Source: an uncultured Clostridia bacterium (GTDB lineage Bacteria; Bacillota; Clostridia; Oscillospirales; JAAYOS01). From it: a DNA stretch of 64,000 nt. Position 1 is the first letter of the stretch. Each line of letters begins with the position of its first letter. The notes beneath the pieces are model-generated. The model did no database searches, was not told where the DNA came from, and was given only the letters and a program-made list of their open reading frames with translations. Location of the stretch: NCBI GenBank assembly GCA_947593925.1, contig CANQDU010000006.1, forward strand, positions 41,938-105,937, written 5' to 3'. The translations under genes were made by a program, and so were the position numbers. Below, piece by piece: positions 9,619 through 48,285 of the stretch.

Positions 9619-9647
9619 TTGATTTTTGCACCCGATTATGGTACACT
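9619..9647 (+). promoter_or_regulatory. Sigma-70-type promoter TTGATT-17-TACACT with TG extension, upstream of the methyltransferase/nuclease pair
   Basis: TTGATT (9619-9624), a 17-nt spacer, and TGgTACACT (9639-9647). It lies ~50 nt upstream of ATG 9698. Confidence 0.5.
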
Positions 9648-9697
9648 ATTATAAAAGAACACGACAATACATATCGAGAGCCGAAAGGACAGGAACG

Positions 9698-10822: not shown

Positions 10823-10823
10823 G

Positions 10824-16047: not shown

Positions 16048-16896
16048 GCGGGGATTGCATCCCCACCCCTCTAGCGGGGAAGCCCCGCGAGCATTCGCGG
16101 GGTGACCCCCGCGTCCCTAAGTGAGGCAGAGCCTCACCGGTACCATGCGGGGGCTGCGCCCCCGCGCCCCGCGTTACTTTTTGCTTGTGCAAAAAGTAAC
16201 CAAAAAGCACACAAAGGGGAGAAAACCAACGGTTTTCTCCCCTTTGTACCCCTCTTTCCTTAATCGGAAAGGCTCTGCCACGCGGGACACCCGTGCGTAG
16301 CTTAGTACAAGCGTCCACGCTCATACTTTCCACTAGAACCGAAAGTCCCGTTTTCTCGGGATAGCCTCTGCATTACGCTTATAGTGTGAGCGTAGGACCG
16401 GACTTTTGTTTCTACTACGCAGGAACTGTTCGATGTCGTCGAATACAGTGGGAAAGTCGGATATTGTCACCCCGGAAACTCACCCGGTCGGACGATAGAT
16501 TTGTTCGATACGGAGTTATGCCCTGTTATGTGGGTCGTGGTGTTGTGTCTGTATTCAGGAGAGGGATTTTTAAGGGAGAGGGCGGAGCCCTCTCCCTTAA
16601 GCGCGCTTTTTGGATACTTTTTGCGCGAGCAAAAAGTAGCGCAGGGGTGCGGGGCGGCACAGCCCCGCGAAGGTAGTGGTGAGGCTCTGCCTCACTTAGG
16701 GACGCGGGGGTCACCCCCGCGAATGCTCGCGGGGCTTCCCCGCTGGATGGGTGTGGGCTTTGCCCACAGATGGGGTGCGGGGCGGCACAGCCCCGCGAAG
16801 GTAGTGGTGAGGCTCTGCCTCACTTAGGGACGCGGGGGTCACCCCCGCGAATGCTCGCGGGGCTTCCCCGCCGGAGGGGTGGGGCACAAGCCCCAC
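16048..16896 (-). repeat. Composite repeat element, copy A (inverted relative to copies B and C)
   Basis: The left arm (16048-16250) and right arm (16552-16896) are mirror-image arrays of short GC hairpins. The conserved ~300-bp core (16251-16551) aligns by hand with the reverse complement of 23161-23458 and 34400-34697. Confidence 0.85.
16644..16871. repeat. Tandem duplication (two identical 100-bp units, 128-bp period) inside the right arm of copy A
   Basis: The unit GGGGTGCGGGGCGGCACAGCCCCGCGAAGGTAGTGGTGAGGCTCTGCCTCACTTAGGGACGCGGGGGTCACCCCCGCGAATGCTCGCGGGGCTTCCCCGC occurs at 16644-16743 and again at 16772-16871. Confidence 0.9.
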
Positions 16897-22923: not shown

Positions 22924-23747
22924 GGGCAGAGCCCATACCCGAATAGCGGGGAAGCCCCGCGGGTATTCGCGGGGGTGACCCCGCGTCCCTAGGTAGAGCG
23001 GAGCTCTACCGACACATTGCGGGGGCGCTGCCCCCGCACCCCCGGCGGGGCTGTGCCGCCCCGCACCCCTGCATTACTTTTTGCTCGCGCAAAAAGTAAT
23101 CAAAAAGCGCGCTTAAGGGAGAGGGCTTTGCCCTCTCCCTTAAAAATCCCTCTCCCAATACAGACACAACACCATTACCCACATAACAGGGCACACTCTG
23201 TATCCAACAAATCCATCATCCGACTGGGTGAGTTTCTGGGGAGAATATCAAACTTTCCTACTATATCGACGACATCGAACAGTTCCTGCGTAGTAGATAC
23301 AAAAAATTCGGTCCTACGCTCACACTATAAGCGTAATGCAGAGGCTATCCCAAGAAAACGGAACTTTCGGTTCTAGTGGAGAGTATGAGCGTGGACACTG
23401 ATACTAAGCTACGTACGGACGCCCTGCGTGGCAGAGACCTTCCGATTAAGGAAAGAGGGGTACAAAGGGGAGAAAACCTAAGGTTTTCTCCCCTTTGTGT
23501 GCTTTTTGGTTACTTTTTGCACAAGCAAAAAGTAACGCGGGGCGCGGGGATGCAATCCCCGCATGGTGCCGGTAGAGCTCCGCTCTACCAAGGACGCGGG
23601 GCTCGCCCCGCAGATTCCTGCGGGGCTTGCCCCGCAGATTCCTGCGGGGTCTTCCCCGCTATACGGGTGTGGGCTCTGCCCACTTGCCCGCGGGGCTTCC
23701 CGCTGGAGGGGGCACAGCCCCGCAAAAGGGGGCGGGCTTTGCCCGCT
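22924..23747 (+). repeat. Composite repeat element, copy B (same orientation as copy C)
   Basis: Hairpin-array arms are at 22924-23160 and 23459-23747, and the conserved core at 23161-23458. It fills the whole intergenic space between the hydrolase promoter and the stop codon of the large kinase. Confidence 0.85.
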
Positions 23748-23751
23748 GATT

Positions 23752-26700
23752 TTACTGCTCCTTGATGGCGTTTCCTCCCCATATGCCCTCGTTTATGAGC
23801 ACGAAATTGTTGATGCCGCCGGTGAAGATATTTCCGTTGTTGACAACTCTGCCGTAATTTCTCAGCTCGCCGTAAGAGAACTCCGTGCGAGCCTCGTTGG
23901 TAAACGTCGAGCCCGGGTCCAGAACCAGATTTCCGCCCACCCGAAGATGGCTGTGGTTGACAAACGAGCTGCTGATGCTGTAGTCATGACAGATCTCGCC
24001 GTCCAATGCCATATACCCGAAGTTTTCGACCGGAGCCGCCAGATGCGTTTTGGCGTTGAGGCTTACGGAACCGTAGTTTGTAAGCCTGCCCGGCCCCTGC
24101 GTGTCAAGGCCCGCGGCGATCAGCCGTCCCGCTTCCCCGATGACGATGTTGGCATTCGTACTCATGCTCGCGCTCAGGAGTATGCCGCCGCTGTCAACGG
24201 AGATCACGCTTCCGGCCTGCATTTCTACGGGAATAAGGGTATACGCCATAGAATTGTTCGTTACCGTCAACTCGCCGCAAAGGGTGATAAAGTTGCTGTC
24301 GTACAGCCGGGAGTCATCGGTGACGGTTATGGCGCCGCCGTTGAGGCGTATCGGCCCGTTAACTTCGCATGCGGAACCGCCGGAAATGACAAGGTCTCCG
24401 CCGCCCGTCAGATCCAGCCTCGGAACATTCTCATTAGGGTCATCGCCGCAGCCTACGGCCAGGAACGCCCCGTCCGTAATGCGGACTCCGCCGGCTCGGA
24501 CAATTCCTCCGCTGATATCTGCTATGCCTCCCGTGACCGTCAGCGTGCCGGTCACGTTCAGCGTGCCGGCGTAAACAGCGAGATCCGTCTCCACTGTCAG
24601 GTCGCCGTCTATCGTAATATCTCCTGCCACTTGGATGCCGTCGCTGCCGGACGCCATGGCAAGCAGCGTCTCCGCGTCGGTTACGGGAACAACCTCATTC
24701 TCTATCCATCTGCGCACGAACTGCCGGCAGTCCCCGTCCTTGTTGAGCGTGTCCCACGCGGCTGCGGCGTTTCCATCTTCATAGAAGACTATTCCGCCGT
24801 GTATCTGCCCGTCGCCGGAGGTGGCAACGCACCCGGCCGGGTCAGTAATCGTTCCGCTGACGTTTTTGAGATCGCCCGTTACCGTCGTGGGTCCGCAGCT
24901 TTTGATATTTCCGGAGTTCCAGCCGTTGCCAAAGACAGCCGTACCGAAGTTACAAACCGTCGAAGCGCCCTGCAGAGAGAAGCCGCCATTGTCAAAGTCG
25001 CCGCCCAGCTCAAGCTCGCCGATATTAAATACTGTGACGAATGCATCCAGCACGAACGCTAACCCTGCGTCTGCCCGGTGCTCCGGGTTTGCGGACAGCT
25101 TCCCGCAGTTTATCAGAAATCCCGAGTGGATGTTCAGGTTCTGCGGATACATGCCGCCCTGATTGAGTAAAAGGGGCATGTCCCAGAAGTCGATGTTGCC
25201 CATTTCTACTGCGGTTCCGTCGTTGACGGTCCCGCTGTTGACAAACAGGTCGCCTTCAAGCACATGTATTTTTATCGACTCGGATATGACGCCGCGGTTC
25301 ACCAGAGCACGGTTGATGAACAGATTCGCGTCGCCGGTGACGGTCGCGTTCTCGCTGATAAGGAGCGGGCCGCTGAAATAGTAATCACCGCTGAGGCTGA
25401 TGTCGCCGTCGATAGCGACCAGCCTGCCGCTTATCGCGGCGTTCCTGAGCACGCCCTCGTCCGTGACGTAGTCGGCGTTCTCAAAGGCTTTGTCCTCGTC
25501 TAAGACAAAGAAGTTCATATCGTCGGGCATCGGCGAGCCGTCCTCTATGGCAAAGTCGGAGCTGTCCGCGACCCACAGAACGATGCCCTCCGCAATGTAT
25601 CCGTCGCTCGTGCGTGTCAGCTTGCCGCCGTTGCGGGTGCGGATAAACCCACCCTCGCCTTCGACACGGTCGACAAGAAGACCCGACCCCTCGCCGTTCA
25701 CGGTGATAACTCCGCCGTTCAGCCTTAAAACGCCGTAAAATTCCGACTCGGCGGATATCTGCACGTCGCCGGAGGTCACCTCGCATCCGCCGTGTACGAC
25801 GACCGGCTTTGTGATGTTGAGCGACTCGTCCAGACGGAGAGCCTGGTCTCCGCTGTATACCACGGAGGAATACGCATTGTCGTCTGTCAGATACGCGATA
25901 AACTGATCCGCGTCGTAGGCGATAACTTCTCCGCCGTCGTTGCCGTTTGTGCCGCTGTCCGCCTGTTCTTCGCTGACCGGCTTGTGCGTAGGCACCGACG
26001 AATACGTTGACGTGGGCTCGGTAACCGGTGGCGCGCTCGGGCTTGCTTCACCTCTGCTGCCGAGAGTGATGCCGAGCGTCACGCCGAGCACCGCCAGAAC
26101 TGCCGCCGCCGCGGCGCCGATTTTGAAAATGAGATTTTTTCGGGGTTCAGGCGGCGGCACCTGCTTTTGCCATCCGGAGTAAAGCTTGACGTCCGATGTG
26201 ACCGTGAGCTCCTTCAGCGGCTTGGTGCAGGCCGAATCGGTGTACCATCCGAGGAAAGTGTACCCCTTCTTTATCGGAACGGGGAGCTCCGACGCCTTCA
26301 GCACGTCGCCCTTGGCGACAGAAAGCTCCGTATTCTCGTCCCCGCCGGTGAGGTAGACGGACACCACGCCCTCATAGAGCGCCGTGTGGAATTCCTTTGC
26401 GGACTGGAACCGTTCCCTCGGCTGTACCCTCAGAGCGCGCAGTATAGCCTGCTCCTGCCCCTGGGACAGCTCCGCGCCGAGCTTTCTCGGAGGGATAAGC
26501 TCGTCCTGGAAGAGGCGGTCCATGGCCTGAGGAGGCTTCTTGCCGGTGATACAGTAGTAAATGGTCGCCGCGAGCGCGTAGACGTCCGTCCACGCGCCCT
26601 GCGCGCCGCTCGAGGACTGGTACTGCTCCAGCGGCGCATATCCGTGCCGGAGCATGATGGTCATGGTGGCGTCGCCGTCTACCGCCTCGCGGGCGCACCC

Positions 26701-27360
26701 GAAGTCGAGCAGCTTGATTATGCCGTGCTCGAGCATGAGGTTATCCGGGCTGATGTCCCGATGGATAAGCCCCAGATCGTGCATGGCGGAAAGAGAATCA
26801 AAGAGCGGCTCGATTATGTGCAGCAGTTCCCACGCCGGCAATACGCCGCCCCGCTGCTTTGTCAGCTCGCTCAACGTCGTTCCGTCGATGAACTCCATGA
26901 CTATGTAGGCGGTGGAGTTCTCTTCAAAGAAGTCCCTGACGCCGACTATGTTCGGCAGCCGGTCCAGCCTCGCCATGGTTCGGGCCTCCTGCAGGAAGCG
27001 CTGTTTTCCGCGCTCGAAGAAGCTGTTATTCGAGCCCAGAAAGTTATCCACGTTGGTAGATACCGCGCTGTTTCTGGTGGCCTTGTCGGTGGGGAAGTAT
27101 TCCTTTACGGCCACCTTCAGGCCGAGGACCATGTCCCGGCCTATGTAGGTGATGCCGAAGCCGCCCTCTCCGAGGACCCTGCCAAGCATATATCGGTCCC
27201 GGAGCACCGTGCCGGCCGGCAGATGCTTCGGCTGCGCTACGTAGCTTCCCGCCGTGAGCCCGCAGCAGGGACACGGCTTATCGCCCTCCACCTGCGACAT
27301 GCAGTACGGGCAGTATTCCGCCTGCGCAGTGTTTCCGTGCTCTTCTATATCCGGAGTCAT
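23752..27360 (-). CDS. Membrane Ser/Thr protein kinase: N-terminal zinc ribbon, Hanks kinase, Listeria-Bacteroides-repeat-like module, TM, ~770-aa repeat-rich ectodomain
   Basis: 1202 aa. Motifs are CPYC..CPCC, the Gly loop GEGGFGITY, VAVKEY, HRDISPDN, DFG and GYAPLEQY. GYTFLGWYTDS occurs before the TM (IFKIGAAAAAVLAVLGVTLGITLG). The C-terminal part is rich in short G/N/V/T repeats suggesting a beta-helix. Confidence 0.85.
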   Translation of the reverse strand: MTPDIEEHGNTAQAEYCPYCMSQVEGDKPCPCCGLTAGSYVAQPKHLPAGTVLRDRYMLGRVLGEGGFGITYIGRDMVLGLKVAVKEYFPTDKATRNSAVSTNVDNFLGSNNSFFERGKQRFLQEARTMARLDRLPNIVGVRDFFEENSTAYIVMEFIDGTTLSELTKQRGGVLPAWELLHIIEPLFDSLSAMHDLGLIHRDISPDNLMLEHGIIKLLDFGCAREAVDGDATMTIMLRHGYAPLEQYQSSSGAQGAWTDVYALAATIYYCITGKKPPQAMDRLFQDELIPPRKLGAELSQGQEQAILRALRVQPRERFQSAKEFHTALYEGVVSVYLTGGDENTELSVAKGDVLKASELPVPIKKGYTFLGWYTDSACTKPLKELTVTSDVKLYSGWQKQVPPPEPRKNLIFKIGAAAAAVLAVLGVTLGITLGSRGEASPSAPPVTEPTSTYSSVPTHKPVSEEQADSGTNGNDGGEVIAYDADQFIAYLTDDNAYSSVVYSGDQALRLDESLNITKPVVVHGGCEVTSGDVQISAESEFYGVLRLNGGVITVNGEGSGLLVDRVEGEGGFIRTRNGGKLTRTSDGYIAEGIVLWVADSSDFAIEDGSPMPDDMNFFVLDEDKAFENADYVTDEGVLRNAAISGRLVAIDGDISLSGDYYFSGPLLISENATVTGDANLFINRALVNRGVISESIKIHVLEGDLFVNSGTVNDGTAVEMGNIDFWDMPLLLNQGGMYPQNLNIHSGFLINCGKLSANPEHRADAGLAFVLDAFVTVFNIGELELGGDFDNGGFSLQGASTVCNFGTAVFGNGWNSGNIKSCGPTTVTGDLKNVSGTITDPAGCVATSGDGQIHGGIVFYEDGNAAAAWDTLNKDGDCRQFVRRWIENEVVPVTDAETLLAMASGSDGIQVAGDITIDGDLTVETDLAVYAGTLNVTGTLTVTGGIADISGGIVRAGGVRITDGAFLAVGCGDDPNENVPRLDLTGGGDLVISGGSACEVNGPIRLNGGAITVTDDSRLYDSNFITLCGELTVTNNSMAYTLIPVEMQAGSVISVDSGGILLSASMSTNANIVIGEAGRLIAAGLDTQGPGRLTNYGSVSLNAKTHLAAPVENFGYMALDGEICHDYSISSSFVNHSHLRVGGNLVLDPGSTFTNEARTEFSYGELRNYGRVVNNGNIFTGGINNFVLINEGIWGGNAIKEQ

Positions 27361-27520
27361 AAAGTGCTTCGTCCTCCCTTTCTGGTGAATTCAGACGCCG
27401 TGCGGCGGCGTCCGGCCCGGAGAAGGCCCCGCCGGACATGCGGATGCGTGCCGGCAGATCGTCTGTCCGGGCGCGGAGCGCCCGCCGGTCTTCCGTTTAC
27501 GGCATGCCGGATACCGCGCC

Positions 27521-28606
27521 TCAGGACGTCGCTATAAGTCCGATGGCGGCAGCAAGGACCGCCACGGCCGCTATCACGCCTGCGATCAACTGTCCACGGT
27601 ACTTTACGTACCACGGCACCGGAGGCGGAGGCGGGGGCGGAGCTATTGCGCTGAGAAGGGCATTTTTGAACTCGGCCATGGTCTGATACCGGTCCGTGGG
27701 ACGTATGGCCAGCGCCTTGCGGAACACGGCCTTCTGTGCCTCCGTAAGGCAGTCGGGAAGGAACAGAGGATCCGGTTGACCTTGGGTAGTTGCGGAAAGG
27801 CGCTCTGAGCAGTCAGTAGGAGCGCTGCCGGTCAGGCAGAACAGCATAGACGCCGCCAGAGTGTAGACGTCGGAGTAGAAGCCCGCGGGTCCCAAGACGG
27901 TTGTGGCCTGCTCGATGGGCGCGTATCCGGGCTTGAAGAAGCCCGTCATAGCTTTGTCTACCGGCCTTGCGGAGCCGAAATCCGTCAGGCACAGCTCGCC
28001 GTTCGGCATGAGCATGATGTTGTCAGGGCATATATCCCTGTGTACCATGCCTTTGCTGTGTATCCACGTTATGCCGTCCATAAGAGGAAGCATCTTCGGG
28101 AAGAGCTCCTGCGGCGCCATTTTTCCGTCCGGGCGGGCGCGGACTGCCTTGTAGAGCGGCTGCCCGGAGATAAACCCCAGGATCAGATACGCCGTTCCGT
28201 TGGCCTCCAGATAGTCCACGCCCTTGACGATGCTTGCCGGGCCGTTGTCAAGCTTTGCGACCATCTTGGCCTCCTTGAGGAAGCTCATGCGCCCTTGGTT
28301 ATAGGCGTCTTCCGTACGGTTTGCGGCGTACACGGTAACGCCGTCCTTGTCACGCTCCGCCCAGCGGTGATTGCCCCTTGAGGGAAAGTATTCCTTGATG
28401 GCAACTTCCTGCTTGGTCCTTTTATCGGTTCCCCGGTAGGTTATACCGAAGCCGCCCTGACCGAGGACGCCGCCGACCCAGTATGTCGCGTCTCCGCTGC
28501 CGATGACCGTTCCGACAGGGAGAGCGGGCGGCAGATTTGCTCCGCAGTGGGGACAGACCGGCTGAGCAGGAGTGTCAAACTCGCGGCCGCATTTCGGACA
28601 TTTCAT
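27521..28606 (-). CDS. Tail-anchored Ser/Thr protein kinase with N-terminal zinc ribbon
   Basis: 361 aa. Motifs are CPKCG...CPHCG, GQGGFGITY, VAIKEY, HRDICPDN, DFG and GYAPIEQ, followed by a PPPPPPVPW linker and a C-terminal TM (LIAGVIAAVAVLAAAIGLIA). Confidence 0.85.
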   Translation of the reverse strand: MKCPKCGREFDTPAQPVCPHCGANLPPALPVGTVIGSGDATYWVGGVLGQGGFGITYRGTDKRTKQEVAIKEYFPSRGNHRWAERDKDGVTVYAANRTEDAYNQGRMSFLKEAKMVAKLDNGPASIVKGVDYLEANGTAYLILGFISGQPLYKAVRARPDGKMAPQELFPKMLPLMDGITWIHSKGMVHRDICPDNIMLMPNGELCLTDFGSARPVDKAMTGFFKPGYAPIEQATTVLGPAGFYSDVYTLAASMLFCLTGSAPTDCSERLSATTQGQPDPLFLPDCLTEAQKAVFRKALAIRPTDRYQTMAEFKNALLSAIAPPPPPPPVPWYVKYRGQLIAGVIAAVAVLAAAIGLIATS

Positions 28607-28609
28607 TTT

Positions 28610-29986
28610 TTATACGCCCCCCTTTGTGCTCACGGTGAATGACTGATTGTTCGAGCCCAGAGCTATCACGTCGCCTACATGCAGTACGGTCGGAACGTTC
28701 GGCGGGATGCGCTGTCCGTTCACGTAGGTGCCGTAGGTCGAGCCGAGATCCGTAACGGTCAGAGACCCGGAGTTCAGCGAGACCGCCGCGTGAACGTGGC
28801 TGACGCCGGGCGTCCTGTCTGGGAATTGGAGACCGTTCGGGCCGGGATCCACGCCTATTCGGACGTACTGCCCCTCATTCACGGCGAAGCGCCTTCCCGC
28901 GAAAACGCCGGCGGTGCCCTGCAGGCGGACGGCTCCGATGATGACCGTTGGGTCGCCGGCCGGCTTATCCTTTCCGCCCTTATCTTTCTTGGTAAGGACG
29001 ACGATAAGCACCACGGCTCCGGCGAGAACCGCGGCGCCTGCGGCGATTATCACTACCCAAAGCCACGTAGAGTCATGGTAGATGTCGTACTTTATGTGCA
29101 GATCATCAAGGATGTCCGGCAGGAAATCTGCCTCGATGGAGAAGAAGTAGTTCTGGCCGTCGCTCTGAGTTCCCCAGGTGTTGATACCCACTACGGCGCC
29201 GTGCTTGTCAATAAGCGGGCCGCCGGAGTTTCCGTAGTTCATGGACGCGGTATGCTGGATAACTCTTACACGCGCGCCGTTGTTATCCGTCGTGGTGGAG
29301 TGAAGGCTGACGGTTCCGTTGGTGACGGTGACACGTTCCACGCTTCCGTAATAGTTTTGAAATCCGTAGCTGTCGCTGACGAAATCCTCCGTGGCTGAGG
29401 GGTATCCCAGCGCCCAGACCTCTTCTCCGGACTCTATCGAATCGTTCGGATCATGCAGCGGCAGCGCCTTGCGTCCCGCGACCGGCTCCGCGGCCTTTAT
29501 CACGGCAAGGTCCGGCTCGTCAAGTTCGGACTTGTACAGGAGATCGCAGGGTACGGCGCGGCTTGTATCTATCTCATTGGTGGCGCTCATTGCAAAGTCG
29601 TCCAACAACAGGTAAATGCGGGATACCGAGGCGGTATAGTAGCATGCGTTACCGTAAATATCATAGTCAAGATCCGCTATATCAGTCATCAGATGACGGT
29701 TGGTCACGAAATACTGCGTCTCCTTGCCGGTCTTTCCGATGCCGGTTCCGCTGCCTAAAGCCATTAATCTCTCATTTACTTGCGTCGGATCCTCTTCGAC
29801 ACCCACAATATTGTCATAGTCGTCAAAGATAAGCGGGTAATAACTCTCTATGTACACGACGGCAACGCGCACAACGCCGTTTCGGTTGGCGCTGCCCGTA
29901 TTGCCGGAGGAACAGCCGGCGAGAGCGACAGTTATCATGCACAGCGCAAGGATTGTGCAAATGACCCTCTTTATATCGGTTTTCAT
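28610..29986 (-). CDS. Lipoprotein-anchored trypsin-like (S1) serine protease - TM - cytoplasmic FHA domain fusion
   Basis: 458 aa. It has a lipobox (VALAGCSS) and a protease region with the Ser motif GNSGGPLIDKHGAVVGINTWG. A TM (WLWVVIIAAGAAVLAGAVVLIVVL) is followed by a C-terminal FHA (GR..., VSHVHAAV, TDLGSTYGTYVNG). The stop lies 3 nt before the next gene's ATG. Confidence 0.8.
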   Translation of the reverse strand: MKTDIKRVICTILALCMITVALAGCSSGNTGSANRNGVVRVAVVYIESYYPLIFDDYDNIVGVEEDPTQVNERLMALGSGTGIGKTGKETQYFVTNRHLMTDIADLDYDIYGNACYYTASVSRIYLLLDDFAMSATNEIDTSRAVPCDLLYKSELDEPDLAVIKAAEPVAGRKALPLHDPNDSIESGEEVWALGYPSATEDFVSDSYGFQNYYGSVERVTVTNGTVSLHSTTTDNNGARVRVIQHTASMNYGNSGGPLIDKHGAVVGINTWGTQSDGQNYFFSIEADFLPDILDDLHIKYDIYHDSTWLWVVIIAAGAAVLAGAVVLIVVLTKKDKGGKDKPAGDPTVIIGAVRLQGTAGVFAGRRFAVNEGQYVRIGVDPGPNGLQFPDRTPGVSHVHAAVSLNSGSLTVTDLGSTYGTYVNGQRIPPNVPTVLHVGDVIALGSNNQSFTVSTKGGV

Positions 29987-30001
29987 ATCCTTTCCCCTTT
30001 C

Positions 30002-30715
30002 TTATATGTCTATCCAGACTGCGGCGGCGGAGTTGTTGTCGTTGCCCTCGCTTACCTTTGAGGCAAGACGTTTCCTCATCCTTGCTATCCAGTCCTCCGG
30101 GTCCTTTGCCGCGCGGAGATCCTTTGCCATCTCTTCCTCCAGCACGTACTCCCAGAACCCGTCGGTGCACAGCAGAAACGCCGTTCTCCCCGGCAGAAGG
30201 TCGCAGGAGCCGGTCTCCACCTTCAGATCCGTGTCCTGCCCCAGGGCGCGGAGCACCCTGTTGCGGTCGGGGTGAAAGCGCAGTTGATCAGGGGTTATCT
30301 GGCCGAGCATCACGCCGATCTGAGCGGAGGAGTGGTCCGTCGTCTGGAACTCCAGCTTGCCGTCGCGGAACCGATAGAGCCGCGAGTCGCCGTCGTGAGC
30401 CCAGACGGCGCGCCCAGGCATGGCCGTCAAAGCCACCACGGTGGTCTTCATGCTGCACTGGGGCGTCTGAATGGCAAGAACGGCTTCGTTGGCGGCGAGG
30501 ACAAGGTTTGTAAGAACGTCCTTGTCCACCTGACCCGCCCAGCGGCCGCAGATAAGCTCGGCCGCCCGGGCGGAGGCCAGTTCGCCGCCGCCGTGGCCGC
30601 CGAGTCCGTCCGCCACCACCGCGCAGATCCTTTCCTCGCCGTGTCTGACCGCCATTACGGTATCTTCGTTGTTGGCACGACCTCCGACATTTGAATATGT
30701 GGCGATTTTGAACAT
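30002..30715 (-). CDS. PP2C-family Ser/Thr phosphatase (soluble)
   Basis: 237 aa. Motifs are NEDT, VADGLGGHGGGELAS and LCTDGFWEYV. The ATG overlaps the upstream stop (TAATG). Confidence 0.85.
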   Translation of the reverse strand: MFKIATYSNVGGRANNEDTVMAVRHGEERICAVVADGLGGHGGGELASARAAELICGRWAGQVDKDVLTNLVLAANEAVLAIQTPQCSMKTTVVALTAMPGRAVWAHDGDSRLYRFRDGKLEFQTTDHSSAQIGVMLGQITPDQLRFHPDRNRVLRALGQDTDLKVETGSCDLLPGRTAFLLCTDGFWEYVLEEEMAKDLRAAKDPEDWIARMRKRLASKVSEGNDNNSAAAVWIDI

Positions 30716-31980
30716 TATTTTCTCCTTTCGGACTTTCGTGAGCTGTCTTCCACCGAAAGTATGACGGCGGTATAGTTGTCCTGATTTGTATAGCCCTTGG
30801 CGGCCACCGCTTTCTTGACGGCATCCGCCGGCGCGCTGTCCGAGAGTGCCGCTGCGAGCTCACTGTCAGTCAAAGCGTTATACACTCCGTCCGTCATGAG
30901 CACCAGCTTATCCCCGGGGTGAAGGTCTATGGGCGACGTGGGCATATCGACATACTTTATATCTCCCATGCCCAGATAGCTGGTAAGTCCGCCCTTCTTC
31001 GGGTGCTTGTAGACGTCGCTTATCTGCGCGGAGCCGCTGACGGCCTGAGCCGCGAGCTCGTATTTGTAGGTGTGTTCGCGGTTGAGCTTATACAGGTCTC
31101 CGTTTCTGTACAGGCATATACGGCTGTCTCCCACGCTGACAAAGGAGAACTTCATGTCGCGCAGAAGACCCATCACAATTGTCGAACCGCTCCGCTTGAG
31201 GCCGCCCGGCCCGAGCAGACCGTCTACGGCCGATACGGCTTTCTTCAGAAGCTCCAGAAGTACGTTCTCGGCGGAGCCGGAGACCGTGAAGAAGCCGTTG
31301 AGCGCCGCGGAAGCGGCGGCCTGACTGACCTGATCCCCGTGCTCGAGACCGCCCATGCCGTCGGCCACCACCGCCAAAACGCCCTGCTTGTCGACAAATT
31401 CGGTGGGTGACACACCGAAGCAGTCCTGCTGATCTTTTCTTGCGCCCTGTCCGTGGAGCTTGTAGGCTTTGACCGTTATTTTTCCGGTCGGTGTCTTGGC
31501 CTTGCGGCTCTTTCTGAGGGCTCGCCGTATCAGCGAGACGATGAGCGCCGCGAGAAGTGCCGCCGTCACGCCGGCCCCGGCGCATATTCCTCCGAAGGCC
31601 GCCGGATGCTGTGCGGCAAAGTCAATGATCTGCCCGGCAAACGTCTGCGTGCCGGTCGTATTTTCGGACTCATTGCCGTCTGCATCTCCGGTTTCTTCGA
31701 CGGCGCCGTCGGTGTCGCCGGTAGCATTTTCGAGCGCCCCGGCGTCTGCGGAGCTCTCCGCACCGGGCGGAGCTGCCGGCGCGGTCGGAGGAGCATCCGA
31801 CGCGGCTGGCGGAGTCACCGGCGCGGTCGGAACGGCATCCGGCACGTCGGGCAGAGCTGCCGGCACGGTCGGAACGGCGTCCGGCACGTCGGGCAGAGCT
31901 GCCGGTGCGGTCGGAATGACATCCGGCAGGTCGGGAGAGGGCGATACGTCCGGGAACCGGGAACTATCCATATTGCTCAT
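30715..31980 (-). CDS. PP2C-family Ser/Thr phosphatase with Pro-rich repeat N-terminus and one TM
   Basis: I chose the start at ATG 31980 (MSNMDSS), which overlaps the upstream stop (ATGA). It has a TM (ICAGAGVTAALLAALIVSLI) and the PP2C motifs VADGMGGLEHGDQVS and LMTDGVYNAL. Confidence 0.8.
   Translation of the reverse strand: MSNMDSSRFPDVSPSPDLPDVIPTAPAALPDVPDAVPTVPAALPDVPDAVPTAPVTPPAASDAPPTAPAAPPGAESSADAGALENATGDTDGAVEETGDADGNESENTTGTQTFAGQIIDFAAQHPAAFGGICAGAGVTAALLAALIVSLIRRALRKSRKAKTPTGKITVKAYKLHGQGARKDQQDCFGVSPTEFVDKQGVLAVVADGMGGLEHGDQVSQAAASAALNGFFTVSGSAENVLLELLKKAVSAVDGLLGPGGLKRSGSTIVMGLLRDMKFSFVSVGDSRICLYRNGDLYKLNREHTYKYELAAQAVSGSAQISDVYKHPKKGGLTSYLGMGDIKYVDMPTSPIDLHPGDKLVLMTDGVYNALTDSELAAALSDSAPADAVKKAVAAKGYTNQDNYTAVILSVEDSSRKSERRK
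31825..31935. repeat. 42-bp tandem repeat (about 2.6 units) encoding the DAVPTxPAALPDVP repeat of the membrane PP2C
   Basis: Units are at 31825-31866 and 31867-31908, with a partial unit at 31909-31935. The two full units differ at only a few positions. Confidence 0.85.
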
Positions 31981-32612
31981 TTGCCCTGTTCTCCCGTCTC
32001 CCAATTGAACTTCTCACAGCAAAGCGGGACAAATATAAGCGTGGTGGCGGAGCCGATGGAGATGGTGTCGTAGGCGTGGATCTCAACGGTGTTGAGAACG
32101 GTCTTGTTGTTGACCTTCACAAGGTTCCGTCCGCCGGCAGGCCCGAAGTAGTAGGCAAGCTCGCTGCTGTCAAAAGCTATCATGGCGTGACTCTCCCGGG
32201 AAATCTGGTCGTCGCCGTGGATGCATATATCGCCGGTGGTGCGGCCTATGTAGTTGTATCCGGCATGGATGCGGTAGTCCTCGCCGTAGTTGGGACCCTT
32301 GATGCATACCAGCCATCCGACCACGGGGTCGCTGCCGCCGACGGGACCGGCGATCTCCGTTTCCACAAATCCCTCGCCGGTTCTGCCGCCGGGGGCGAAG
32401 GTGATGGACTCGGTGGCGCCGGGGACGCCGCCGATGGGCTCGGTGCCGGTCATACCGCCGATGGGTTCGGTGACGCCGGGAACGCCGCCGTTGGACTCGA
32501 CAGACGGGGCCGAACCGGCCGATTTTGCTCCGCATCTGGGGCAAACCTTGTATTTCGCTGTATCGAAGGGATGGCCGTTGGTGCAGTAGGTCATTGTGGT
32601 TTTGGCTTCCAT
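31977..32612 (-). CDS. Zinc-ribbon plus FHA domain protein
   Basis: I chose the start at ATG 32612 (MEAKTTMTYCTNGHPF..CPRCG), preceded by GGGAGGAAAA. It has a Gly/Thr/Pro repeat linker (GVPGVTEPIGGMTGTEPIGGVPGATE) and a C-terminal FHA (IGR..., ISRESHAMIAF, LVKVNN). Confidence 0.8.
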   Translation of the reverse strand: MEAKTTMTYCTNGHPFDTAKYKVCPRCGAKSAGSAPSVESNGGVPGVTEPIGGMTGTEPIGGVPGATESITFAPGGRTGEGFVETEIAGPVGGSDPVVGWLVCIKGPNYGEDYRIHAGYNYIGRTTGDICIHGDDQISRESHAMIAFDSSELAYYFGPAGGRNLVKVNNKTVLNTVEIHAYDTISIGSATTLIFVPLCCEKFNWETGEQGK

Positions 32613-32860
32613 GTTATTTTCCTCCCAATAATTCGTTTTGCCCATTTCGGGCAATTATACAAATTAAATTCTACCACACCTATAACATTTGCAGTCCAAT
32701 CCATTTCCGTCGAAAAAACAGACGCGGAGACAGCCACGGCGCGTCGGCCGGGCTGTCCCCGCAAAAATGTCAAAATCAAAAAACGCCGCGTTGTTCGGGA
32801 GCGGTCCCGCAGTCATTTTCATCCTCGCCGGAAGAGCGGAGCCGCTCTCCCGGTGTATAT

Positions 32861-33943
32861 TTATTCGGAGAAAAGCTGCTCTATCACCTGGGACATACGC
32901 TCGCTCATGGGCTCGGAGTCCGAGGCCAGTGCGTAGAGGGTGAGCCAGTCGGTCGGATCCCGAGGATCCAGCGGCGGCATACCGCAGTCGTTGAGTATGG
33001 CGTTCAGCGTCCACCAATGCTGTTCAAATCTTTCCGAGGCGGTGATATACAGCTCGTCATACTCGCTGTACCCCGAGTCCACCACATTCTCCGTCACCAG
33101 ATACAGAAGCAGCAGAAGCTTTCTGGGCACGTCCTCCTTGCGGGCGCAGATGTTCTTGAGATATGTGGCATTCGGCCAGTTATGCTTTATGAGCTTCTGG
33201 GTGACTGTCAGCCCCGAACGCGAACGGGCTCTCGGCATGCCCATCGTAAGATACAGCTCGGTGACCTCCTCCACGGAGTAGCTCGGCTCCGCCGCACCGC
33301 CGACCTGCGTTGGAGGATTCCTCAGCTGATCCATGTATCTGTCAAGATACCAATAGGCCCGCAGATGGAGCGTTCCGAAGAGCGGGAGCTTGGAAGTGTA
33401 GAGAGTTCGCAATTCCTCGAGGTTATGGACCAGCATGAAGGACTCCTGAAGCTCGTGCGTAACATTTGACGATGTCGTCGCCGGTACGGCGAGAGGAATC
33501 TCTACCCGCGGTAGAGATTTGTAAAACTCCGAAGCCTGCCTGTATTTCCCGGCGTTGCGCAGGAACCAGGCGTATATCACATCCCGCCCGTCCCGGTAAT
33601 GTATTCCGCACCCGGTGCACTGTCCCAACAGACGGTTGGCGTCGTTCTCGGAAAGACCCAGCGCGAACGCCATTCTGAAGAGGTCCTCGCGGTCTGAGGG
33701 TGTGTGCCTGTCGGAAAGCCAGTTGTGTACCTTCCGCAGCGCCGATGCCTCCTCCGGGTCGCCGGGGAGCGACGAGAATTCACGTATAAGCTTGGACTGA
33801 AGGTCGTCAAGTGGATAGAGCGCCCGAAGGGTCTCGGAAAAAGTGCGTATGCTTATTTTCTCTTCACGAAGAAATTCCGCCGCTTTTTTCGGCGTCCATC
33901 CTCCCCAGACTACGCCGTCCGCTCCGGAAAGCATAATTTCCAT
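32861..33943 (-). CDS. Hypothetical 360-aa protein, first gene of the kinase/phosphatase/FHA island
   Basis: A long ORF on the island strand with its own consensus promoter. I recognised no catalytic motif. The N-terminal segment TPKKAAEFLREEKISIRTFSETL could be an HTH, but this is weak. Confidence 0.6.
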   Translation of the reverse strand: MEIMLSGADGVVWGGWTPKKAAEFLREEKISIRTFSETLRALYPLDDLQSKLIREFSSLPGDPEEASALRKVHNWLSDRHTPSDREDLFRMAFALGLSENDANRLLGQCTGCGIHYRDGRDVIYAWFLRNAGKYRQASEFYKSLPRVEIPLAVPATTSSNVTHELQESFMLVHNLEELRTLYTSKLPLFGTLHLRAYWYLDRYMDQLRNPPTQVGGAAEPSYSVEEVTELYLTMGMPRARSRSGLTVTQKLIKHNWPNATYLKNICARKEDVPRKLLLLLYLVTENVVDSGYSEYDELYITASERFEQHWWTLNAILNDCGMPPLDPRDPTDWLTLYALASDSEPMSERMSQVIEQLFSE

Positions 33944-34022: not shown

Positions 34023-34051
34023 AGTATATCACAAAAGATGCGGCTTTTCAA
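34023..34051 (-). promoter_or_regulatory. Sigma-70-type promoter TTGAAA-17-TATACT with TG extension for the island's first gene
   Basis: On the minus strand, TTGAAA is at 34046-34051, followed by a 17-nt spacer and TGaTATACT (34023-34031). It lies ~75 nt upstream of ATG 33943 and directly abuts repeat copy C. Confidence 0.6.
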
Positions 34052-34100: not shown

Positions 34101-34995
34101 GCGGGGCCGTGAGCGCCGCGTCCCTAGGTGAGGCAGAGCCTCACCGACACCTTCGCGGGGCTTTGCCGCCCCGCACCCATCTAGCGGGGAAGCCCCGCAG
34201 GAATCTGCGGGGCGAGCCCCGCGTCCCTGTTACGGGGTAAAACCCCGTATGAATATGCGGAACCTGGCGGTTCCGAGACCTTCGCGGGGCTGTGCCGCCC
34301 CGCACCCCTGCGTTACTTTTTGCTCGCGCAAAAAGTAACCAAAAAGCGCGCTTAAGGGAGAGGGCTCCGCCCTCTCCCTTAAAAATCCCTCTCCCAATAC
34401 AGACACACAACCGCAACCCTCATAGCAGGACCCACTCTGTATCCAACAAATCTATCGTCCCACCGGGTGAGTTTCTGGGGAGAACATCAAACTTTCCAAC
34501 CGTATTCGACGACATCGAACAGTTCCTGCGTAGTAGAAATAAAAATCCGGTCCTACGCTCACACTATAAGCATAATGCAGAGGCTATCCCGAGAAAACGG
34601 AGCTTTCGGTTCTAGAAGAAAGTATGAGCGGGAAAGCCTGTGCTAAGCTACGGACGGACATCCCACGTAGCAGAGACTTTCCGATTAAGGAAAGAGGGTA
34701 CAAAGGGGAGAAAACCGTGGTTTTCTCCCCTTTGTGTGCTTTTTGGTTACTTTTTGCACAAGCAAAAAGTAACGCGGGGCGTGGGGATGCAATCCCCGCA
34801 TGGCGCCGGTAGAGCTCCGCTCTACCAAGGACGCGGGGCTCGCCCCGCGGATGCCCGCGGGGTCTGCCCCGCTAGGGGGTGGGGGGCACATGCCCCACAT
34901 CTGCCCGTGAGGCTCTGCCTCACTTCAGGACGCGGGGTCTCGCCCCGCGAATACTCGCGGGGCTTCCCCGTTATACGGGTGCGGGGCAATGCCAT
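34101..34995 (+). repeat. Composite repeat element, copy C (same orientation as copy B)
   Basis: Hairpin-array arms are at 34101-34399 and 34698-34995, and the conserved core at 34400-34697. It lies between the island promoter and the rhaB promoter region. Confidence 0.85.
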
Positions 34996-39337: not shown

Positions 39338-39559
39338 CGGACGGCGTTTGCTCCCGTCCCTTCAGAGAGCCGGAGGGACGGGAGGAGGCGCTTTCCTCAT
39401 TAGCGGCTCCGTCTCCTTTCAGAGTCTGCCCGGACAGCGCGTGGCTGCGGCTTGCCGTTGCCGCCGCCCCCACTGTTCGGGCGGAAAGAAAAAAGGAACG
39501 AATGCCGCAGGAAAGTCCCCACAATACTTCAAACAGAATGTGAAAGGAGTACAATTACT

Positions 39560-41659
39560 ATGCGTAAGAAAGTACTGGCATTAGTGTTGGCGTTGGTCAT
39601 GGTTATCGCCATGCTTCCGACGGTGGCGTTCGCCGCGGACTTCGCCGACACGAAGGGCCACTGGGCTGAGACCCAGATCGACCGTTGGAGCGACTTCGGC
39701 GTCGTCGGAGGCGACGGCACCGGCTTCAACCCGAACGGCAGCATGACCCGCGCACAGGCGGCCCAGGTTTTCGTCAATCTTCTGAAGCTGACGAAGGCCG
39801 GCGACATCACCGCCTATACCGACGTTCCCGCCACCGCGTGGTATGCCGACGCGATAAGCAAGGTCGTCGAGAAGGGCATCATGAACGGCGTGAGCGCCAC
39901 GACGATGAACCCGGAAGGCACTCTCACCCGCGAGCAGATGTTCGTCATGATCGGCCGCGCGCTCGGCGTCAAGCCGGTCGAGACCGCCACGAAGACCTTC
40001 GTTGACGGCAAGGAGACCTCCGATTGGGCCACCGGCTACATAAACGCGCTTGCCGACATGGGCGTCATCCACGGCACCGGCAACAACGAGCTCAATCCGA
40101 CCGACGTCATCAACCGCGCGAGCGTTATGACCGCGCTCGACAACCTCATCGGCGGCTACGCGAACGAGGACGGCCAGACCGTCGAGATTCAGGAGGGCAA
40201 GATAACCCTTATCGTCGCTGACGACGTCAAGGTCACAGGCGAGGCTGACCCGGATATGCCGATAGTCGTCGCGGGCGCGGCGAAGACCGTCGACCTCGAG
40301 GGCGTCACCGTCACCGGCGAAGAGGCTCCCGTGGTTCAGGTTCAGGTCGAGGAAGTTGCCATAGAGAACGCGCCGGAGGGCACGAACGTTGCCGCTCCTG
40401 CCGAGGCTACCGACGTCACCGTCAACGGTGAGACCGTCGAGGCCGGCAGCACCGCCGAGGCTCCCGCTCCCGAGGCCGAGCAGACCGCTCCGTCCCAGCA
40501 GGGTACGACTCCGGTTCCGCAGCCGGCTCCGGCTGAACCGACGCCGTCTGAGCACAAAAATGAGGCCGAGGCAGCTATGAACGCTGCGTGGGAAGCTCTT
40601 GATACTGCTCTTGACGACATGGGTGAACTCGTTGTGGCTTCTCAGAGCAATGGCACTTATACTCTCACCATCAATTTTGATAAGCTTACGTCCACCGATA
40701 AGGTTCTTGACGGTGACGGTCACGGACTTGCCACCGCAATCGGCGAGGCGCTGAAAACGCACCTCAATGGTATCTCCCTGACTGTCGGCGGTGAGGATGT
40801 CTACACTGCCGAGGGCAAGTTCAATAACACCGCGCTTAAGCATGCTCTGTTCACCGTTGCCGGTGGCTTCTTCTATGATCTCGGTAATCTCCCCGAGAGC
40901 GGAGAGTTCAGATCCGTTGAGGGTACTGCCACTGCCAACAATTGCACACAGAGTGACAAGTGCACGTATGATGTTACCCTTAAGGTCGTGCTCACAGGCG
41001 AAAAACTCACTCGCGTCAAGGATTTTGCGAAGAAACTTTCCGATTATGTGTCCATGACTAAGATCAACGCGAGCGATGTTGCTAGTAAGTATGGCACGAT
41101 TCAAGGTCTCACCGGCGAATCCGAGTACATTGTCGTTTGCCTTGATAAGCTTCCCCAGACCCTTCTCACTAAGGTAGGTCAGGCTTATCGTGGTGACAGT
41201 GCGCAGACAGCTTTTGAGGGTGCTTCTGTTGAAGCGCTTTTGACCCTCCTGGCACAGCAGACAATGGACGGCAGCCTCGCCGAGATTGAGACGCTTGCTA
41301 GGATGATCAACACCAATGAAGGCCTTATCGATACCGTACTTGGCCACGTTTCCGCGAAGGTGCTTGTTGGCGGCGAGACTAAGGATCTTATTACCATGGG
41401 CTCCAATTATACTCCTTACGCCGGTTCAGTTACTGATTTTGCTAAGTTGGTCAAGGGCGTTAATGCGCTCCTCACCAGCGATGCCAAGTCCCTGAAGCCC
41501 AGCCAGTTCAAGGTCACACAGGGATCGACGACAGGCAAGTATATTGTTCCTGTTACCGTCCACATTGACCTCGAGTCTTCTCTCGGTTTCACGGCTGATG
41601 AGACGATACTGGTAGAGCTCAATATTGACCTCTCCTCCGTGAATACTTCCGGAAAATAA
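39560..41659 (+). CDS. Surface protein with N-terminal SLH (S-layer homology) domains
   Basis: I chose the start at ATG 39560 (MRKKVLALVLALVMVIAMLPTVAFA signal peptide) after AAAGGAG. There are three SLH-like repeats (FADTKGHWAETQIDRW..., YTDVPATAWYADAISKVVEKGIMNG..., FVDGKETSDWATGYINALADMGVIHG...). A Pro/Ala/Glu linker and an unassigned C-terminal half follow. Confidence 0.85.
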   Translation: MRKKVLALVLALVMVIAMLPTVAFAADFADTKGHWAETQIDRWSDFGVVGGDGTGFNPNGSMTRAQAAQVFVNLLKLTKAGDITAYTDVPATAWYADAISKVVEKGIMNGVSATTMNPEGTLTREQMFVMIGRALGVKPVETATKTFVDGKETSDWATGYINALADMGVIHGTGNNELNPTDVINRASVMTALDNLIGGYANEDGQTVEIQEGKITLIVADDVKVTGEADPDMPIVVAGAAKTVDLEGVTVTGEEAPVVQVQVEEVAIENAPEGTNVAAPAEATDVTVNGETVEAGSTAEAPAPEAEQTAPSQQGTTPVPQPAPAEPTPSEHKNEAEAAMNAAWEALDTALDDMGELVVASQSNGTYTLTINFDKLTSTDKVLDGDGHGLATAIGEALKTHLNGISLTVGGEDVYTAEGKFNNTALKHALFTVAGGFFYDLGNLPESGEFRSVEGTATANNCTQSDKCTYDVTLKVVLTGEKLTRVKDFAKKLSDYVSMTKINASDVASKYGTIQGLTGESEYIVVCLDKLPQTLLTKVGQAYRGDSAQTAFEGASVEALLTLLAQQTMDGSLAEIETLARMINTNEGLIDTVLGHVSAKVLVGGETKDLITMGSNYTPYAGSVTDFAKLVKGVNALLTSDAKSLKPSQFKVTQGSTTGKYIVPVTVHIDLESSLGFTADETILVELNIDLSSVNTSGK

Positions 41660-41679
41660 TTACCCATACCCCCGGCGCC

Positions 41680-41716
41680 CGGTGGCAGGCAGGCTTCTGC
41701 CTGCCACCGATTTTAA
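41680..41716 (+). terminator. Intrinsic terminator after the 699-aa SLH protein gene
   Basis: A 12-bp stem (CGGTGGCAGGCA / TGCCTGCCACCG) with a 6-nt loop, followed by ATTTTAATT. Confidence 0.75.
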
Positions 41717-41758
41717 TTAACTCTTTTCACCGATTCGGTGAGTTGAAAGGAGTTCCAA

Positions 41759-41836
41759 ATGGACAAAAAAGTTAAATTGTCGGAACACCTGACGACGATT
41801 TGCTTGTATGTATACGAAATGAGGTGTTATCTATGA
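41759..41836 (+). CDS. Candidate 25-codon upstream ORF translationally coupled to the 1762-aa SLH protein gene
   Basis: AAAGGAG lies 7 nt upstream of ATG 41759. The product is MDKKVKLSEHLTTICLYVYEMRCYL. Its TGA (41834-41836) overlaps the ATG (41833-41835) of the large gene as ATGA. There is no homology evidence. Confidence 0.3.
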   Translation: MDKKVKLSEHLTTICLYVYEMRCYL

Positions 41837-47121: not shown

Positions 47122-47412
47122 GCGAACGGGAGCGCGAAGCTGCACCACAGCAGCGGAGCAACCGGCGCAAAACAATCAAAAGAGAGTGGCGGCGCGTGCG
47201 CGCCGCCACTCTTGCGTAACCGGGATAATTCGTGCGGCATGATTTCGGTCATGCCGCGATTTCGTTTGCGGGGCCGCTCAAAAGCGAGACATCCGGATGC
47301 GTCGGCGGTCGATGTCGCCGCCGGCGTAGAGGCGCCCGTTCTGCTCAACGGGCGCAGGGCAGGCGAGAGGCCGCAACATGCCCGCGTCAGCGCCGCATCG
47401 AACGCCCCCGCT

Positions 47413-48210: not shown

Positions 48211-48227
48211 ATTTTTCACCTTCCCTA

Positions 48228-48258
48228 TTGACTTGTTCACGGGTGAACATGATACAAT
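48228..48258 (+). promoter_or_regulatory. MerR-type promoter: TTGACT - 19-bp spacer containing a perfect dyad - TACAAT, driving the 3322-aa gene
   Basis: TTGACT is at 48228-48233. The 19-nt spacer holds TGTTCAC-GG-GTGAACA (48234-48249). TGaTACAAT is at 48250-48258. The over-long spacer plus dyad is the classic MerR activation architecture. Confidence 0.75.
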
Positions 48259-48285
48259 AATAAGTGTAAAAGTGGGACTTGTCAA
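48257..48285 (-). promoter_or_regulatory. Divergent promoter TTGACA-17-TATTAT for the MerR-family gene, overlapping the -10 of the opposing promoter
   Basis: On the minus strand, TTGACA is at 48280-48285, followed by a 17-nt spacer and TATTAT (48257-48262). The dyad operator lies in its leader. Confidence 0.65.

Follow-up and report, generated by a model that had tools for sequence, protein, structure and literature searches.

Signalling in which a Hanks-type Ser/Thr kinase writes a phosphate mark, a PP2C phosphatase erases it and an FHA domain reads it is already known from bacteria, and among the described systems the actinobacterial fhaA-fhaB-pstP-rodA-pbpA-pknA-pknB cluster (Mycobacterium, Corynebacterium, Streptomyces) shows the closest resemblance in gene order to the locus reported here. 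This locus, a cluster of seven genes (G1 to G7), occupies positions 23752-33943 of a 64,000-nucleotide stretch of DNA, hereafter the window (contig CANQDU010000006.1 of assembly GCA_947593925.1, positions 41,938 to 105,937), from an uncultured bacterium of the Clostridia. Its kinase, PP2C and FHA components belong to the known kind of signalling; what is new is the cluster itself, of which a full-text literature search found no description, and the widespread uncharacterised protein family to which G1 belongs.

The two clusters share, once a gene found in relatives of ours (G0) is counted, two FHA genes of which one is membrane-bound, a membrane PP2C, two further genes and two tandem Hanks kinases, the last of receptor type, and with these the same write-erase-read logic. 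They differ in the two middle genes, which here, as in the related loci L001-L004, L086 and L088, encode a second PP2C and a protease-FHA fusion rather than RodA and PbpA. They differ too in the receptor: no PASTA domain is detected by Pfam, the PknB_PASTA_kin model reaches 151 bits against a cutoff of 450, and the ectodomain is modelled as a beta-solenoid here, with leucine-rich repeats (LRR) in relatives. In our cluster zinc ribbons are present on the kinases and on G2, G2 lacks DUF3662, and there is an extra putative partner, G1. Nor does the locus correspond to the Stk1/Stp1 (PrkC/PrpC) pair: PASTA is missing, and the Stk1 model gives 151 and 95 bits against a cutoff of 450.

The closest functional analogy, with no common ancestry implied, is with the LRR receptor-like kinases of plants and the FHA-PP2C protein KAPP. 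In the plant system single-pass receptor kinases carry variable LRR or solenoid ectodomains, an FHA domain docks on the phosphorylated receptor, and the PP2C resets it. Here, FHA and PP2C belong to different proteins, one of the FHA domains has an extracellular protease tethered to it, and the kinases bear zinc ribbons and a catalytic loop of the form HRDI[S/A/C]PDN. The PpkA/PppA/Fha1 pathway of type VI secretion systems (T6SS) likewise uses a receptor Hanks kinase, a PP2C and an FHA protein as a post-translational switch, but no T6SS genes accompany our cluster, the host is of Gram-positive type, and the TagH-type VI_FHA model, whose cutoff is 120 bits, gives 21.3.

The nearest published unit of two kinases, a PP2C and FHA is KKP of Pf prophages (PfpC-PfkA-PfkB), in which two non-redundant kinases act with a PP2C and FHA is involved. 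KKP is a prophage-borne system of Gram-negatives, ordered PP2C-kinase-kinase, whose small cytoplasmic kinases (900-1300 bp) are fused to CSD or FHA, and it behaves as a toxin-antitoxin or defence module (PMC11341870). It differs from the present locus in every architectural detail: CSD is absent here, the FHA domains belong to proteins other than the kinases, which are 361 and 1202 aa long, and the system is chromosomal and membrane-based. The vWA/MoxR 'ternary' conflict systems also use FHA, kinase and PP2C domains, differently and without the present architecture (PMC7159879).

Gene content and transcription units

The seven open reading frames (ORFs) listed in a preliminary description of the window, made from the sequence alone, were recovered on the minus strand with identical coordinates. 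G1 (32861-33943) encodes a 360-aa protein of an uncharacterised family; G2 (31977-32612) encodes a zinc ribbon and a divergent FHA domain; G3 (30715-31980) a membrane PP2C; G4 (30002-30715) a soluble PP2C; G5 (28610-29986) a lipoprotein-type signal, a trypsin-like protease, a transmembrane (TM) helix and an FHA domain; G6 (kinase K1, 27521-28606) a 361-aa zinc-ribbon Hanks kinase with a C-terminal membrane anchor; and G7 (kinase K2, 23752-27360) a 1202-aa receptor-type Hanks kinase. Pfam matches, a hydropathy scan and a profile comparison for G2 support the domain content as first described. Direct reading of the sequence also found the three tight junctions that had been pointed out: ATGA at 31980-31977, in which the G3 start overlaps the G2 stop; a TAATG overlap of G3 and G4 at 30717-30713; and TAA-aaa-ATG at 28612-28604, between G5 and G6.

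The seven genes had been taken for one co-oriented block. They do lie on one strand, but G1 appears to be its own transcription unit and, as shown below, is convergent with the others in most relatives. Upstream of it a consensus scan picked out a sigma-70-like promoter candidate at 34023-34051 (minus strand; a pattern match only), consisting of TTGAAA, a 17-nt spacer and TATACT with a TG extension, and matching 10 of the 12 consensus positions; TATAAT is found upstream of G1 in 44 of 81 relatives. The G1 stop is followed by terminator-like hairpins, one of which, with a T-run, is at 32723-32738 (minus strand) between G1 and G2. A promoter-like stretch comes next, and the G2 ATG at 32612 is preceded by the ribosome-binding site GGGAGG. 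Judged by these signals, the block is a separately transcribed G1 and a six-gene operon, G2-G7.

Conservation and gene neighbourhood

An alignment-based scan of species-representative genomes found 131 relatives of G1. Their carriers include Oscillospiraceae, Lachnospiraceae (Acetatifactor, Blautia), Flavonifractor, Negativibacillus, Allofournierella and others, and the full gene set is present in a cultured organism, Flavonifractor sp. An82. The ORFs of 85 loci with a G1 relative were compared with the seven window proteins: 51 loci were complete, 21 partial (mostly cut by contig ends) and 13 held G1 alone, 10 of the latter being truncated by contig ends. That the same set recurs in 51 of 85 independent loci is more than chance would give, and bears out the earlier view of a module for Ser/Thr phospho-signalling that is complete in itself.

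The genes are usually arranged as [G0]-G2-G3-G4-G5-kinase-kinase. G0, an extra first gene before G2 in at least 23 loci and absent from the window, codes for a multi-pass membrane protein whose FHA domain is C-terminal, and in some copies there is a DUF805 domain as well; with G0 included, the usual system is one of eight genes. In 47 of the complete loci G1 immediately follows the large kinase and is convergent; in four, which make up the clade of the window, it is co-oriented. Since the linkage is kept while the arrangement changes, this is good evidence for a functional tie between G1 and the operon. Exactly two kinases are present in 48 of the 52 loci that contain G2-G5, so that the doubling of components remarked on in the preliminary description holds family-wide for kinases and PP2Cs.

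That description had also found the cluster unaccompanied by any recognisable machine. Inspection of about 90 related loci, including flanking sequence of up to 10 kb, showed no recurrent family of genes for secretion, pili, division or the cell wall beside it, and no linkage resembling a type VII secretion system, a pilus or a divisome is repeated from locus to locus. All-against-all clustering of the flanking ORFs yielded as extra 'families' only antisense shadow ORFs of the core genes and generic ABC ATPases, and the genes called beside independent loci are unrelated housekeeping genes that vary from one locus to the next. A link with sporulation was rejected: SpoIIID, SASP, SpoVT and DpaA genes each occur beside single loci and none is recurrent. 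G1 had no match in phage records, plasmid records or IMG/VR. On the best reading of these sequence comparisons the cluster is chromosomally inherited and self-contained, and specific to gut Clostridia (Oscillospirales, Lachnospirales).

Kinases and phosphatases

G6 matches Pkinase (7.9e-24) and, weakly, a zinc ribbon in Pfam; hydropathy places a C-terminal TM anchor at residues 336-361, and there is no ectodomain in this genome. Orthologues of G6 are between 330 and 950 aa long, and an LRR_5 ectodomain is frequent on the first kinase of relatives. In G7 (Pkinase 2.9e-30; Flg_new 7.4e-10) a zinc ribbon, the kinase domain, Flg_new and a TM helix (residues 409-436 by hydropathy) precede a 766-aa ectodomain. 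The Flg_new domain, a Listeria-Bacteroides repeat, occupies residues 339-394 (window 26179-26346, minus strand), on the predicted cytoplasmic side of the membrane; it is normally a domain of surface proteins.

The Lys, HRD and DFG motifs are intact in G6, the catalytic motifs of G7 are likewise conserved, and across loci L001-L085 129 of the 132 kinase domains keep Lys, HRD and DFG, and the N-terminal C..C...C..C zinc-ribbon cysteines are present in 121-124 of the 132. The hallmark of the subfamily is its catalytic loop, HRDI[S/A/C]PDN. Both kinases are predicted to be active. The two phosphatases are predicted to be active as well. G3 (PP2C_2, 2.1e-13) has a Pro/Ala-rich extracellular N-terminus, a TM helix at residues 127-155 by hydropathy and a cytoplasmic PP2C domain, the metal-binding Asp motifs of which are intact in 59 of 59 sequences; G4 (PP2C_2, 2.3e-11) has intact catalytic motifs in all 57 sequences compared. 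The Stp1 model of NCBIfam gives 149.6 bits with G4 and 95.3 bits, both under its cutoff of 230.

The G7 ectodomain (23755-26052, minus strand) was modelled by AF2, at a pLDDT of 78.8, as a long stack of short beta-strands. Its top Foldseek matches in the PDB are all parallel beta-helix proteins (Ag43, TibA, PL6 alginate lyases, PfbA and phage tailspikes), with weak scores, the best being E=0.013 for Ag43; the ectodomain models as a beta-solenoid of this parallel beta-helix type. Only four homologues of it were found by word-indexed search, and the ectodomains of orthologues show LRR_5 matches and faint Pectate_lyase_5 matches.

The FHA proteins and the protease fusion

In the cytoplasmic protein G2 a zinc ribbon (C10, H14, C24, C27) is joined through a Thr-rich linker to a divergent FHA domain. 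The zinc ligands, in the form C..H...C..C, are conserved in 49 homologues. The window protein matches no Pfam family at E<=0.01, its best weak FHA-like match being Yop-YscD_cpl (E=0.033); orthologues carry PF00498 (FHA), and a profile of 53 G2 C-termini aligns over 88 columns with the profile of the G5 FHA domain (hhalign probability 83%, E=9e-6). The expected Arg is found in 50 of the 53, Ser in 52 and His in 39, with an unusual S-x-x-x-H spacing; the Asn equivalent differs between two alignments and is ambiguous. In the linker (32325-32528, minus strand) tandem motifs of the type F-x-P-T-E-P-x-G-G contain, in the window, Thr48, Thr57, Thr67 and Thr85. Thr-Glu dipeptides number 90 in the linkers of 49 homologues, against 16.4 expected from composition, with at least one in 41 of the 49 and at least two in 31. 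These Thr residues are candidate phospho-acceptor sites.

As in GarA and OdhI, G2 is a small cytoplasmic protein with a Thr acceptor segment, in G2 a candidate one, N-terminal to its own FHA domain, an arrangement which would permit self-binding after phosphorylation. It differs from them in having a zinc ribbon, 2-4 tandem P-T-E-P motifs and a divergent FHA domain with S-x-x-x-H, and the OdhI model matches only the FHA domain of G5, weakly, at 22 bits against a cutoff of 200.

G5 (Trypsin_2, 2.5e-18; FHA, 2.9e-15) begins with an LAGC lipobox followed, according to hydropathy, by an extracellular trypsin/HtrA-like serine protease, a TM helix at residues 306-333 and a cytoplasmic FHA domain. 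The His-Asp-Ser triad is intact in 56 of 57 sequences and the protease is predicted to be active. It shares with HtrA/MarP-type proteases an extracytoplasmic trypsin fold with intact triad, and is set apart from them by the absence of a PDZ domain (Pfam) and by the combination of lipoprotein-type signal, single TM helix and cytoplasmic FHA tail; the degP_htrA_DO model gives 65.9 bits against a cutoff of 416. Reference libraries name the fusion no further than 'trypsin-like peptidase domain-containing protein'.

Loss of the phosphate-binding residues of the FHA domains had been raised as a difficulty for a phospho-signalling role. It is partly borne out for G5 in this genome, where Arg is replaced by Val and Asn by Tyr, but not for the family: the G5 FHA domain keeps Gly, Ser and His in 55 of 55 sequences and Arg in 48 of 55, and G2 keeps Arg and Ser. 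Replacement of the pThr-binding Arg, by Val, Ile or Thr, is found in the window and its nearest relatives (L006-L009, L014, L019). Where Asn would be canonical, 37 of the 55 have Tyr and 16 have His; alignment places a His at the same position in human kanadaptin.

G1, a kinase-linked family

G1 belongs to no family in Pfam, NCBIfam, PADLOC or PHROGs; its profile matched no PDB sequence at E<=10, and a scan of 46 family members at E<=1 gave no consistent family match. The AF2 model is all-alpha, with 18 helices (pLDDT 85.6, pTM 0.84), and has no neighbour with E<1 in Foldseek searches of the PDB and BFVD. The family is large: 373 close homologues were found, none with a family or name, and a HMMER full profile search returned 1028 clusters at 50% identity. 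In some members an N-terminal module of about 110 aa is tandemly duplicated, which makes it a separate domain.

Relatives of G1 adjoin kinases of the H.DI[S/A]PDN type in four contexts: the usual cluster of seven or eight genes; a minimal convergent pair of G1 and one kinase in the cultured Sarcina sp. DSM 11001; and two loci in which a G1-like gene lies directly upstream of a gene for a (pseudo)kinase-NACHT protein of ~1000-1200 aa, with a 4-nt overlap in one (L090). This tie to one kinase subfamily in four architectures makes G1 the best candidate for an output, a better one than the protease and the kinase ectodomain, which the preliminary description had considered the only plausible effectors. 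G1 is best read, from its genomic associations, as a dedicated partner of the kinase, whether substrate, adaptor or regulator. One distant branch of the family has no kinase by Pfam.

In the two NACHT loci (L090:10001-16434 and L093:2051-7991) the distant G1-like protein has a duplicated N-terminal module and is followed by the kinase-like P-loop NTPase protein. That of L090 has a Pfam NACHT match and, by eye, YD-like repeats at its C-terminus; the NTPase part in L093 was assigned through homology to L090 and a GGGMGKT P-loop. The kinase motifs of these proteins read HLDI[S/A]PDN with DFD or DYN, so that they are likely pseudokinases, and in both loci the next gene encodes an unannotated protein of about 375 aa. 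The gene pairs may represent a STAND-type conflict system built around the G1 and kinase families.

Three related genomes (L025, L028, L031) have a solitary G1, at about 9953-11041, with no kinase, PP2C, FHA or protease gene within the 10-kb flanks. Either G1 can be unlinked from the operon or the operon lies elsewhere in those genomes.

Some features of G1 recall Cro/C1-type helix-turn-helix (HTH) proteins. A motif, VHNWLSDRHTPSDREDLFRMAFALGLS, resembles helices 3-5 of HTH_3; a paralogue has at the equivalent position a sub-threshold HTH_3 match (E=6e-4, 20.2 bits against a cutoff of 23); and Foldseek repeatedly returns HTH and CI-repressor proteins as weak, partial matches, the best HTH one at E=6.3. 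Yet none of 46 aligned family sequences matches an HTH family at E<=1, in hhalign comparison neither SinR nor P22 C2 reaches a probability of 1%, the first 130 residues are acidic (median isoelectric point 5.7), and in the AF2 model the putative helices are connected by a loop that exceeds a classical turn in length. A search for enriched k-mers upstream of G1 and of the operon returned only TATAAT, ribosome-binding sites and coding sequence, with no conserved operator.

Divergence from the nearest relative

The nearest relative, L006, is a metagenome-assembled genome of a rabbit-gut Clostridia bacterium. Nucleotide identity to it is 95-96% in the flanks and 87-92% in the island. At the protein level the cytoplasmic parts are well conserved, G1 and the FHA domain of G2 at 99% identity, the G7 kinase domain at 96%, G4 at 95% and the PP2C domain of G3 at 91%. 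The extracellular parts are far less so, with 76% for the G5 protease, 72% for the G7 ectodomain and 55% for the N-terminus of G3. Extracellular parts evolve fast and cytoplasmic parts slowly.

A proposed relay and its alternatives

The reading we prefer, and to which we give an even chance of being right, is that the locus specifies a lineage-specific transmembrane Ser/Thr phospho-relay for surface sensing, analogous in its logic to the plant receptor kinases and KAPP. G7 would be the receptor kinase, its beta-solenoid ectodomain binding an extracellular or cell-surface polymer, glycan or protein, and G6, membrane-anchored and without an ectodomain here, its partner kinase. The kinases would phosphorylate Thr residues, the best candidates being those in the tandem P-T-E-P motifs of the G2 linker, beside the G2 FHA domain in the manner of GarA and OdhI. 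The marks would be read by the FHA domains of G2, of the G5 tail and, in other species, of G0, and erased by the membrane-tethered PP2C G3 and the soluble PP2C G4. Through its FHA tail G5 would couple the intracellular phospho-state to the extracellular trypsin-like protease, which may trim the receptor ectodomain or its ligand. G1, cytoplasmic and all-alpha, would be the dedicated partner of the kinase and the likeliest route to output.

Several points weigh against this proposal. The catalytic loop, HRDI[S/A/C]PDN, is without the Lys that Ser/Thr kinases usually have there, and kinase activity is predicted from sequence. Every step beyond active kinases, phosphatases and protease and their topology is inferred. 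The role of G1 as output is argued from gene linkage, the protein having no significant match in sequence or structure; and the linkage itself is broken in the three solitary loci, which have full flanks, and in one variant of the operon that lacks G1. In the window the G5 FHA domain is without its Arg and G0 is missing, and the coupling of FHA to protease may here be weakened or rewired. Finally, fast-evolving ectodomains and kinase-NACHT relatives would suit a role in immunity or conflict equally well.

Such a role is the first alternative: an anti-phage or inter-bacterial conflict system whose hypervariable LRR or beta-solenoid ectodomains detect phage or competitor and which mounts a protective or abortive response via G1. 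The speed at which the extracellular parts diversify, far above that of the flanks and cytoplasmic parts, is in its favour, as is the pairing of distant G1 relatives with STAND-type (pseudo)kinase-NACHT proteins, and kinase-based defences do exist, KKP among them (PMC11341870). Models in PADLOC also match: those of kinases (PD-T4-6 and mad6 among them) match G6 and G7, down to E=1e-47, and the PP2C of the candidate system PDC-M21 matches G3 and G4. But these matches are confined to the generic kinase or PP2C fold, G1 and G2 match no PADLOC model, the partner genes of MADS (mad6) and Mokosh (MkoA) are absent, and PD-T4-6 is a single-gene system that a hidden Markov model alone cannot discriminate. 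The inheritance of the cluster argues in the same direction: G1 identity falls from 99% to 47% with taxonomic distance across two orders, which fits vertical descent, the flanks hold housekeeping genes and not defence islands, and neither phages nor plasmids nor IMG/VR contain G1. The cluster also lacks any toxic effector such as a nuclease or a pore. We consider this explanation improbable.

A regulator of cell-envelope growth and homeostasis, a derived counterpart of the actinobacterial cluster or of PrkC/PrpC whose protease would process wall hydrolases as MarP does RipA, is an alternative that we likewise regard as unlikely. The gene order is the same with G0 counted (FHA, FHA, PP2C, two genes, kinase, kinase), the FHA domain of G5 weakly matches FhaB/FipA and MarP models, and the G5 protease faces the cell wall. 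However, the cluster contains no RodA/FtsW, penicillin-binding protein or PASTA domain and none recurs nearby, all NCBIfam matches are far under their cutoffs, and a rapidly diverging ectodomain would be unexpected in a sensor of conserved peptidoglycan fragments.

That G1 is a degenerate Cro/C1-type HTH transcription factor which regulates the adjacent operon, and is not a signalling component, would agree with its separate transcription and with the faint HTH resemblances described above, but hhalign, the family scan and the acidic N-terminus led us to reject it as the principal interpretation, the N-terminal module being duplicated in paralogues that are translationally coupled to a kinase gene, more as expected of a protein partner, and we keep it as a minor and very improbable rival.

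Surroundings of the cluster

The genes that flank the island are of ordinary chromosomal kinds: a bile-salt hydrolase, a CHAP-domain protein and a two-component system are encoded on one side, rhamnose catabolism and giant SLH surface proteins on the other. The SLH-anchored proteins, of 735, 1773 and 3322 aa, are encoded at 39452-58359 (plus strand) and contain Flg_new, Calx-beta, CarboxypepD_reg and YDG domains; the 1773- and 3322-aa proteins are separated by a 329-aa ORF that matches nothing in Pfam.

A non-coding repeat of about 600-730 bp is present in three copies in the window, at 23045-23635 and 34151-34873 on the plus strand and at 16064-16668 on the minus strand, and in L006 at 528-1255; the copies have a mean column identity of about 79%, and 83% to the L006 copy. 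Close to each end of the element are hairpins (TTACTTTTTGC...GCAAAAAGTAA); it further has a strong terminator-like stem, a folding z of -3.7 for the core of its plus strand and no coding signature, and it is situated among GC-rich REP-like repeats. Rfam gave no match anywhere in the window at gathering thresholds, and none that was convincing for the repeat. The island lies between the first two copies, which form direct repeats. Compared with L006, whose own copy lies elsewhere, both are insertions, so that the element looks mobile and not part of the island; the idea of a mobile island bounded by direct repeats was rejected, L006 having the island without flanking copies.

Two further features lie at lower coordinates of the window. 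An 874-aa ORF at 12022-14646 (plus strand) joins a complete EF-G/Tet(M)-like translational GTPase (GTP_EFTU, EFG_III, EFG_IV, EFG_C) to a C-terminal YacP-like NYN nuclease, an unusual combination. At 9626-11930 (plus strand) a low-GC islet (GC 0.49 against about 0.61; GC at third codon positions of 0.43 in its first gene) holds an EcoRI-type adenine methyltransferase gene adjoining one for a GmrSD_N and HNH endonuclease, probably an acquired restriction or defence pair.

Implications

Oscillospiraceae and Lachnospiraceae dominate the mammalian and avian gut, and how they sense their environment there is almost unknown. The cluster is a widespread, defined unit of seven to eight genes in which receptor kinases and an extracellular protease are predicted to be joined through an FHA domain, an unusual coupling. 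A more specific reading, which we offer as doubtful, is that of a surface-surveillance pathway like that of plant pattern-recognition receptor kinases, in which fast-evolving LRR and beta-solenoid receptor kinases would detect foreign macromolecules of phage, competitor, host or diet, the FHA-tethered protease would gate or shed the receptor, and G1, of putatively new fold, would serve as the kinase's dedicated adaptor or effector. Were this so, the sharing of G1 with STAND-type kinase-NACHT proteins would place the module within a broader, kinase-centred immune-like toolkit. The function of G1 would annotate a large orphan family and could show how bacterial Hanks kinases reach their outputs, and the fast-evolving ectodomains may mark an interface of these bacteria with phage, host or diet.

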